In this document: in pieces, positions 57,471 through 57,774 of the stretch | Layout: every line of letters starts with the position of its first letter | How positions within the stretch are numbered: position 1 is the first letter of the stretch | IMG/VR virus record: IMGVR_UViG_3300023108_000002 | DNA from: a virus | Lineage: Duplodnaviria > Caudoviricetes | Direction: 5' to 3' (one strand) | DNA: 64,000 bases | Notes under the pieces: model-generated | What the model was told of the DNA's origin: nothing | What the model saw: the letters and a program-made list of their open reading frames with translations, nothing else | The model's database searches: none | Program-made: the position numbers and the translations under genes

Positions 57471-57716
57471 TTACGCAGCAATGTCAACTAAAATCGAGCG
57501 AAGATCCGCAGAACGCGAAGGATGTTTCAGTTTCCGTTCGGCTTTGGCTTGGATTTGACGAATGCGCTCAACAGACAAGTTCATAATGCATCCGATTTCG
57601 CCGAGAGTGTGCTGCCCGACACCGTTCAGTCCGTAGCGCATTCGAATGACACGCTCTTCTCTGGGGGAGAGAGTAAGAAGAGTTGTACGAAGAATGTCTG
57701 AGTCGTTCTTAATCAT
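57471..57716 (-). CDS. Stand-alone sigma70 (RpoD) region 4 domain protein
   Basis: [18 protein letters not shown]...HTLGEIG...[29 protein letters not shown] aligns by eye with the RpoD C-terminus. Confidence 0.92.
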   Translation of the reverse strand: [81 protein letters not shown]

Positions 57717-57746
57717 TTCGAATCACCTTTCTCTTATTACTCTTAT

Positions 57747-57774
57747 AATCTAACAGATTCATAGAGAAAGTCAA
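57747..57774 (-). promoter_or_regulatory. Sigma70-type early promoter cassette
   Basis: GCCCTTGACT-16nt-TAGATT on minus, with GAATC in the spacer. Confidence 0.65.

Follow-up and report, generated by a model that had tools for sequence, protein, structure and literature searches.

A phage gene for a stand-alone homologue of primary-sigma region 4 in the early region of uncultured T4-like phages

Phage proteins at the beta-flap and sigma region 4

In bacteriophage T4, host RNA polymerase is redirected by two proteins, AsiA and MotA, the first of which binds and remodels region 4 of the host sigma factor. To our knowledge, most marine T4-like phages lack both proteins. In sigma70, region 4 contacts the beta-flap in or near helices H1, H2, and H5 and contacts the -35 element through its helix-turn-helix (HTH) (PMC2988021). 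The late-transcription co-activator of T4, gp33, binds the beta-flap tip at the site used by sigma-4 and has been called a sigma-4 mimic (PMC2988020). Gp39 of Thermus phage P23-45 and P7 of Xanthomonas phage Xp10 also act on the beta-flap and sigma region 4, and they change promoter-class use and termination (PMC3950348, PMC3351154, PMC3985653). A preprint on D29 gp53 concerns a different kind of sigma mimicry, and PMC7948647 contains nothing on sigma-4 supplied in trans. A 2026 preprint (bioRxiv 10.64898/2026.10.08.757525) reports single-domain proteins, with sigma-4 the most frequent kind, as the commonest sigma-related architecture in phages, and the ESM Atlas holds several mostly viral clusters of 70- to 76-residue proteins that contain Sigma70_r4 only. 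Our literature search found no characterised function for a stand-alone sigma-4 protein of a phage.

Here we describe an 81-residue protein encoded in a 64,000-nucleotide stretch of phage DNA, hereafter the window, together with the family of 74- to 81-residue proteins to which it belongs. Its closest structural counterpart is domain 4 of alphaproteobacterial RpoD (Caulobacter; 7ye1, chain F), with which it shares homology over the whole length, the five-helix layout, an ERIRQI recognition helix, the PREERV-RMR(F/Y)G sequence of H2, and the C-terminal tail. Unlike RpoD, the phage protein lacks domains 1.1-3 and the 3.2 linker, carries V, P, or F at the position of R584, has the E591Q and (in this family only) L595E changes, has a hypervariable HTH turn, and can dispense with the HPSRS loop, which is missing from the 74-residue forms. 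Like gp33, it is a small protein of a T4-like phage, but gp33 has no sigma sequence similarity, does not read DNA, and has a tail that binds the sliding clamp, whereas the sigma-4 protein is a true sigma-4 homologue that retains DNA-reading residues and coexists with a gp33 homologue in its lineage. Like AsiA (with MotA), it would be an early product whose predicted target is the interface of sigma70 region 4, the beta-flap, and the -35 element, with -35-dependent initiation lost or redirected; AsiA does this by remodeling host region 4, whereas the sigma-4 protein would imitate region 4. Gp39 and P7 are small phage proteins too, but neither is homologous to sigma, and both have unrelated folds. 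With the catalogued phage single-domain sigma-4 proteins and the Atlas clusters the protein shares the presence of Sigma70_r4 alone. Those catalogues are bioinformatic and, in the text accessible to us, describe no function, whereas the family described here is group-1-like including the RpoD tail, occurs in T4-like phages, and has a variable cassette. The sigma-4-only architecture has already been catalogued, and we regard the 74- to 81-residue family as a distinct variant of it. As judged from the sequences, the family combines group-1 character that extends through the RpoD tail with a place in T4-like phages, an early promoter, and a recombining specificity cassette. An early gene of this kind probably represents a new route by which phages tamper with host transcription.

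The ORF, its early promoter, and its neighbours

The window is part of the genome of an uncultured, marine T4-like phage. Baseplate and fibre genes occupy the minus strand to ~39 kb; beyond this point are small early genes, host-like genes (GMP reductase, SbmA, ClpP, and lipase), and four tRNAs. No close nucleotide match to the window was present among 50,697 deposited phage records, and tblastn and blastn searches of INPHARED recovered no cultured phage with the sigma-4 gene or window DNA, the matches being contaminating host rpoD sequences or, at ≤55% identity, phage sigmas of full length.

The ORF list places an 81-residue ORF, from ATG to TAA, at 57471-57716 on the minus strand, and Pfam, PDB, and AlphaFold results agree in assigning this CDS as a stand-alone domain 4 of a group-1 sigma, comprising regions 4.1-4.2 and the C-terminal H5 tail. 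Pfam Sigma70_r4 (PF04545) covered residues 13-65 (E 9e-15, 54.4 bits, cut-off 24.1). In phmmer searches of the PDB, the top structure was Caulobacter RpoD (7ye1_F), whose final 66 residues matched residues 11-76 (E 1.6e-17), and residues 12-78 matched 547-613 of E. coli sigma70; overall, the alignments to primary sigma factors ran end to end and covered their final 66-70 residues. The alignment to sigma70 547-613 means that residue n of the phage protein corresponds to E. coli residue n+535, giving the pairs V49/R584, E50/E585, R51/R586, R53/R588, and Q54/Q589. The primary-sigma H5 tail, of the HPSRS...LRSFL type, is whole in the 81-residue forms as KLKHPSRS(A/V)DLRSIL. These results bear out the original prediction that the ORF consists only of sigma region 4 and the RpoD tail and that Val replaces the arginine equivalent to E. 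coli R584. That prediction had also taken KLKHPSRS for the alphaproteobacterial form of RpoD, and KLKHPSR is indeed present in named alphaproteobacterial loci.

The Pfam scan of the 81-residue protein revealed no second sigma domain. At E <= 1 its list comprised sigma-4 and HTH families plus a handful of weak, unrelated ones (E >= 0.1), with no similarity to AsiA and no match to GerE/LuxR (PF00196). The protein also matched phrog_351 (sigma factor) and not phrog_254. No sigma-like ORF was found upstream of the gene; the sequence 5' of the ORF is promoter rather than coding, and the ORF begins at the equivalent of E. coli residue 536. The AlphaFold model contains five helices (residues 5-13, 18-28, 38-45, 49-63, and 70-80), as in sigma domain 4, with pLDDT values of 81-94 in the core and a weak H5. 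For two copies of the protein, ESMFold2 with alignment A1 gave a score of 0.06 (mark 0.42), which weighs neither way on dimerisation. By homology, then, the 81-residue protein is a true stand-alone homologue of primary-sigma region 4. By the same token it is not a sigma factor, as it lacks domain 2, the part of a sigma factor that engages the beta' coiled-coil and that recognizes and melts the -10 element.

A consensus scan and matches to promoter cassettes identified an early-type sigma70 promoter directly upstream (57745-57774, minus strand). Its -35 element is TTGACT (57774-57769), followed either by 16 nt and TAGATT with an upstream TG, which makes the extended -10 TGtTAGATT, or by 18 nt and GATTAT. 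The Shine-Dalgarno sequence AAGGTGAT (57722-57729, minus strand) lies in a conserved 5'UTR block, AAAGGTGATTCGAAATG, and presents the ribosome site AGGTGAT 5 nt before the ATG. The promoter and 5'UTR share 73-78% identity with the early cassette that recurs in the window (58516-58600, 58742-58826, and elsewhere) and that reads gcccTTGACW, N17, TATATT, and then taag...AAAGGTGATTCGnAATG; inverted-repeat matches I1 and I2 likewise tie the sigma-4 promoter to the early promoter cassettes. This cassette precedes many early genes in the window and in its relatives, and it stands before the sigma-4 gene in L001, L003, L004, and L008 as well. The -10 element of the sigma-4 gene is weaker than in the best early cassettes. 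A copy of the early cassette and the AGGTGAT site thus uphold the earlier claim that the gene has its own early promoter and a strong ribosome-binding site, and by promoter class the gene is early-transcribed. Within the 25-kb early region (39-64 kb), the early cassette was the only element recovered when we looked for operator motifs or promoters of a third class. A conserved GCCC directly precedes the -35 element in the early cassettes at 42574-42622, 55190-55238, 58516-58600, 58742-58826, and 61299-61383.

The sigma-4 gene heads a small minus-strand islet, and the genes on both flanks lie on the plus strand. Within and just past the 3' end of the CDS is an internal early promoter (57459-57487, minus strand), with TTGACA in the codons for L-V-D-I, a 17-nt spacer, and TACATT. 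The overlap of this TTGACA with coding sequence explains part of the extreme conservation of the 3' end of the gene. In relatives, the internal promoter is followed by a full leader cassette and a small membrane-like ORF (L001 6230-6290; L008 4224-4283). In the window the leader is absent, and a 75-residue ORF begins inside the -10 element of the internal promoter. This 75-residue ORF (57231-57458, minus strand; ORF list), which matches no family and lies 12 nt downstream of the sigma-4 gene, is probably co-transcribed with it, in the window phage only. The ORF list and promoter scan place the rest of the minus-strand early islet at 56590-57227: a promoter at 57227 with a 65-residue ORF (56972-57169), a promoter at 56963 with a 56-residue ORF (56735-56905), and a terminator at 56617-56590.

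Conservation, origin, and a hypervariable cassette

A family search of 5.8 billion proteins, confined to lengths of 44-142 residues, recovered ~30 sequence clusters of 74-81 residues at 68-99% identity, all metagenomic and on contigs of up to 123 kb. In every genomic context that we fetched, the sigma-4 gene was separate, had the cassette in front, and was inverted relative to its neighbours, with conserved synteny. The original prediction had allowed for a remnant of a longer sigma gene in related phages; the gene is short in all ~30 clusters, and this conserved length together with the synteny rules that origin out. Membership in a generic HTH repressor family, the other possibility it had raised, is refuted as well; the protein is a homologue of primary-sigma region 4. 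An alignment of 32 family sequences contained 41 invariant columns. Helix H2 was invariant save for one M/L position, as were E50, R51, I52, Q54, I55, and Q56; R53 (R588 in E. coli) was present in 31 sequences and replaced by His in the other. The C-terminal RSILVD, including the RSIL of H5, was nearly invariant. Outside a variable patch described below, dN was 0.03-0.07 and dS 0.02-0.19, with dN the lower in most pairs.

There is also a second family of stand-alone sigma-4 proteins, 76 residues long and from another phage type, with members from Tara samples (L093 698-928; JGI 3300072015 contig). Its gene is flanked by a RuvC-like resolvase and a phrog_624 DNA-binding protein, with rnh, frd, and td nearby, and overlaps the beginning of the gene that follows. 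Both families have an MI(K/M)N start, have lost R584 (Met in the second family), and carry E591Q. Both also keep E585, R586, R588, and Q589, as well as H2 and H5, the segments through which sigma70 binds the beta-flap. In a maximum-likelihood tree, the two phage families formed one clade (99/91). P0136, a protein of 328 residues with a central sigma-4 domain between unrelated N- and C-terminal extensions, was the nearest sister of this clade (98/84).

Where did the domain come from? An exhaustive phmmer search of 1.84 billion representatives found nothing closer than ~65% to the 81-residue protein. Almost all of the best single-domain matches were of one type, carried by named alphaproteobacterial genomes; identity was 61-63% to named alphaproteobacterial loci and up to 65% to alphaproteobacterial-type fragments. 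Mean identity to Alphaproteobacteria was 61% (71% for the second family), versus 54-58% (63-68%) for the other sampled classes. The taxon mix of the matches listed from our bacterial genome scan is biased, as the scan used patterns favouring alphaproteobacterial motifs. In the maximum-likelihood tree, which rests on 72 columns only, the phage clade was not nested in Alphaproteobacteria, and on this 72-column tree the AU test did not reject a placement inside them (p 0.41). The phylogeny against RpoD region 4 proposed earlier unites the two phage families in one clade and is compatible with an origin inside or outside Alphaproteobacteria. Of the earlier claim that the protein is host-derived, the homology to RpoD stands, and the closest match is to the alphaproteobacterial type; a recent capture does not fit an identity of at most 65% and a separate phage clade. 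We conclude from these comparisons that the domain is alphaproteobacterial-like, old, and phage-resident rather than recently captured.

The changes relative to RpoD are concentrated in and around the HTH. At the position of R584, the 32 family members have V (24 sequences), P (7), or F (1), and the second family has M. By contrast with this position, E585, R586, and Q589 were invariant, and R588 was nearly so. Position 591 is Q rather than E in both families, and position 595 is E rather than L in the 74- to 81-residue family only. The 79-residue forms lack two tail residues, and in the 74-residue forms the H4-H5 loop, HPSRSxDL, is deleted and RSIL is kept. Alignment A1 and its entropy table define a hypervariable cassette in codons 42-49 (57570-57593, minus strand), which correspond to 577-584 of E. 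coli sigma70 and span the end of H3, the HTH turn, and the first recognition-helix residue; residues 57 and 58 vary along with it. Alleles of this cassette differ at 46-58% of nucleotides, versus 4-9% outside it in the same gene (Fisher p 1e-5 to 1e-8). Because dS is also raised inside codons 42-49, the cassette appears to consist of old alleles moved by recombination and not to be the product of recent positive selection only. Phages with different cassette alleles have similar early promoters, which argues that the cassette is not tracking the early -35 box.

Possible roles at the host polymerase

We infer binding to the flap, binding to DNA, and an effect on transcription from homology and from the pattern of conserved and variable sites. 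Because the H2 and H5 motifs are the most conserved and most of the DNA-reading residues are kept, we tentatively favour a free sigma-4 module acting as a competitor at the flap and -35 interface, a reading that is quite possible and still well open to challenge. In this scheme, a free sigma domain 4 would be made early, from a host-sigma70-type promoter, and would enter the host initiation machinery in the manner of the primary sigma's own region 4. Contact with the beta-flap tip of RNA polymerase would be made by its conserved H1/H2/H5 face, and its HTH, with E585, R586, R588, and Q589 but without R584, could lie on the TTG half of -35-like DNA. Lacking sigma domains 2 and 3, the protein cannot initiate transcription. 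It would instead act as a competitor of host sigma70 region 4, at a site later shared with gp33, and the outcome may be that -35-dependent initiation is damped or redirected or that flap-dependent pausing and termination are altered. The recombining patch beside the recognition helix might adjust the contact with DNA or a host protein from strain to strain. The regulatory niche would be that of AsiA, with or without MotA, in T4.

Several features sit poorly with a flap competitor. Deletion of the H4-H5 loop in the 74-residue forms should shift H5, a flap-contact element; L595E and E591Q alter the non-DNA face of the recognition helix; a pure competitor needs neither conserved DNA-reading residues nor a variable HTH patch; and conservation of LVDI may be due in part to the overlapping promoter. 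A related scheme, in which the protein serves as a trans-acting replacement for region 4, strikes us as distinctly unlikely: it would displace host sigma70 region 4 at the flap tip or join gp55-RNA polymerase, and the HTH cassette would set a new upstream-element specificity. If true, this would amount to 'sigma appropriation by domain substitution' and to a one-protein answer to middle-gene timing in T4-like phages without MotA and AsiA.

Somewhat less likely than competition at the flap, yet a serious contender, is an ordinary sequence-specific DNA-binding regulator in the style of GerE/LuxR HTH proteins, which would have kept the sigma-4 fold without needing the flap. Such a regulator would repress or activate at phage or host operators, and its cassette would set specificity, as in the immunity types of phage repressors. 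A size of 81 residues matches that of stand-alone HTH regulators, E585, R586, and Q589 are invariant and R588 is nearly so, and variation coincides exactly with the HTH turn and the first residue of the recognition helix and looks like old recombined alleles; P0121 and P0123, in which the scaffold of arrayed sigma-4-like repeats is conserved and the recognition helices vary, fit the same idea. Against it, however, Pfam gave no GerE or LuxR match at E <= 1, the early promoters look the same across alleles, the 25-kb early region holds no third repeated motif, and a plain DNA binder would have no obvious need for the conserved H5 motif LRS(I/F)L. A decoy or sponge for host proteins that bind sigma70 region 4 (Rsd-type anti-sigmas, class II or PhoB-type activators, or a defence sensor) is unlikely. 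Here the variable patch would track host-strain variation in the partner, and the maintained allelic polymorphism would fit an antagonistic one. The variable positions (578-584, 592, 593, and 596) overlap what we take to be the region-4 contact site of the activators PhoB and lambda cI. PhoB is a candidate partner given the phosphate-uptake genes that flank the sigma-4 gene in both versions of the island; the region upstream of PstS contains repeated TTACA words and no TTGACA. Sequestration of PhoB, however, would work against a phage that carries pstS, and, since a terminator precedes the sigma-4 gene, which is read from a promoter of its own, the adjacency to phosphate genes may reflect only a hot spot for acquired genes.

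It is very unlikely that the protein is a gp33 equivalent or a gp55 partner that completes a true split sigma for late or middle promoters. The precedent is that T4 gp55 is region-2-like only and forms a split sigma with gp33, a described sigma-4 mimic (PMC2988020). A relative, however, has a normal gp33 homologue (L096 1495-1746, minus strand; 83 residues, phrog_254, E 1e-19) in a 64.7-kb record, ~14 kb from its sigma-4 gene. This homologue overlaps a 226-residue ORF that follows it (818-1498, minus strand), an arrangement that matches the T4 order 33-59, and the record contains no match to Sigma70_r2 (PF04542). Since the relative keeps a normal gp33, the sigma-4 protein does not replace gp33, and the presence of gp33 in the lineage makes a role as gp33 substitute or gp55 partner unlikely. 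The early promoter of the sigma-4 gene also speaks against a split sigma, as do the seven TATAAATA sites in the window, which share no -35-like or other upstream word. That the gene is a functionless, decaying fragment of a captured rpoD is hardly credible. The idea draws on the presence of the last domain only and on the loss of an arginine that is key to DNA contact. Against it stand an intact frame, a length conserved in ~30 clusters and in the second family, long invariant stretches, a dN lower than dS in most pairs outside the patch, and the gene's own promoter and strong ribosome site.

As a conserved, true homologue of sigma domain 4 under an early promoter, the family is a concrete and cheaply testable candidate for the shut-off of early and host transcription or for middle-gene timing in marine T4-like phages. 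The 81-residue protein gives clear predictions concerning flap binding, -35-dependent versus extended -10 promoters, and three natural specificity alleles, NLSV, DRSV, and IVTP. It would be the first functional handle on a large class of phage sigma-4-only proteins.

The phosphate-uptake genes that adjoin the sigma-4 gene differ between the two versions of the island. In the window (58040-58525, plus strand) and in L001-L003, the neighbour is a conserved 159- to 161-residue piece of a Na/Pi cotransporter with a single repeat; in L008 (2536-3519), L009, and L094 (3565-4548), it is PstS, accompanied by a 76-residue gene. Upstream of PstS in L008 (2390-2470), TTACA/GTTACA words recur at ~10-nt steps without a TTGACA, and to judge from these words the region looks like a Pho-box-type promoter.

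Proteins with many sigma-4-like segments were also present in the databases. P0121, P0122, and P0123 have 589-938 residues and 7-11 matched sigma-4-like stretches. In P0121 and P0123, these stretches repeat in tandem, the scaffold (…DREKDILFRRYGLNG…) staying nearly identical while the recognition helix changes from one repeat to the next, and the repeats would constitute a modular DNA-reading array.
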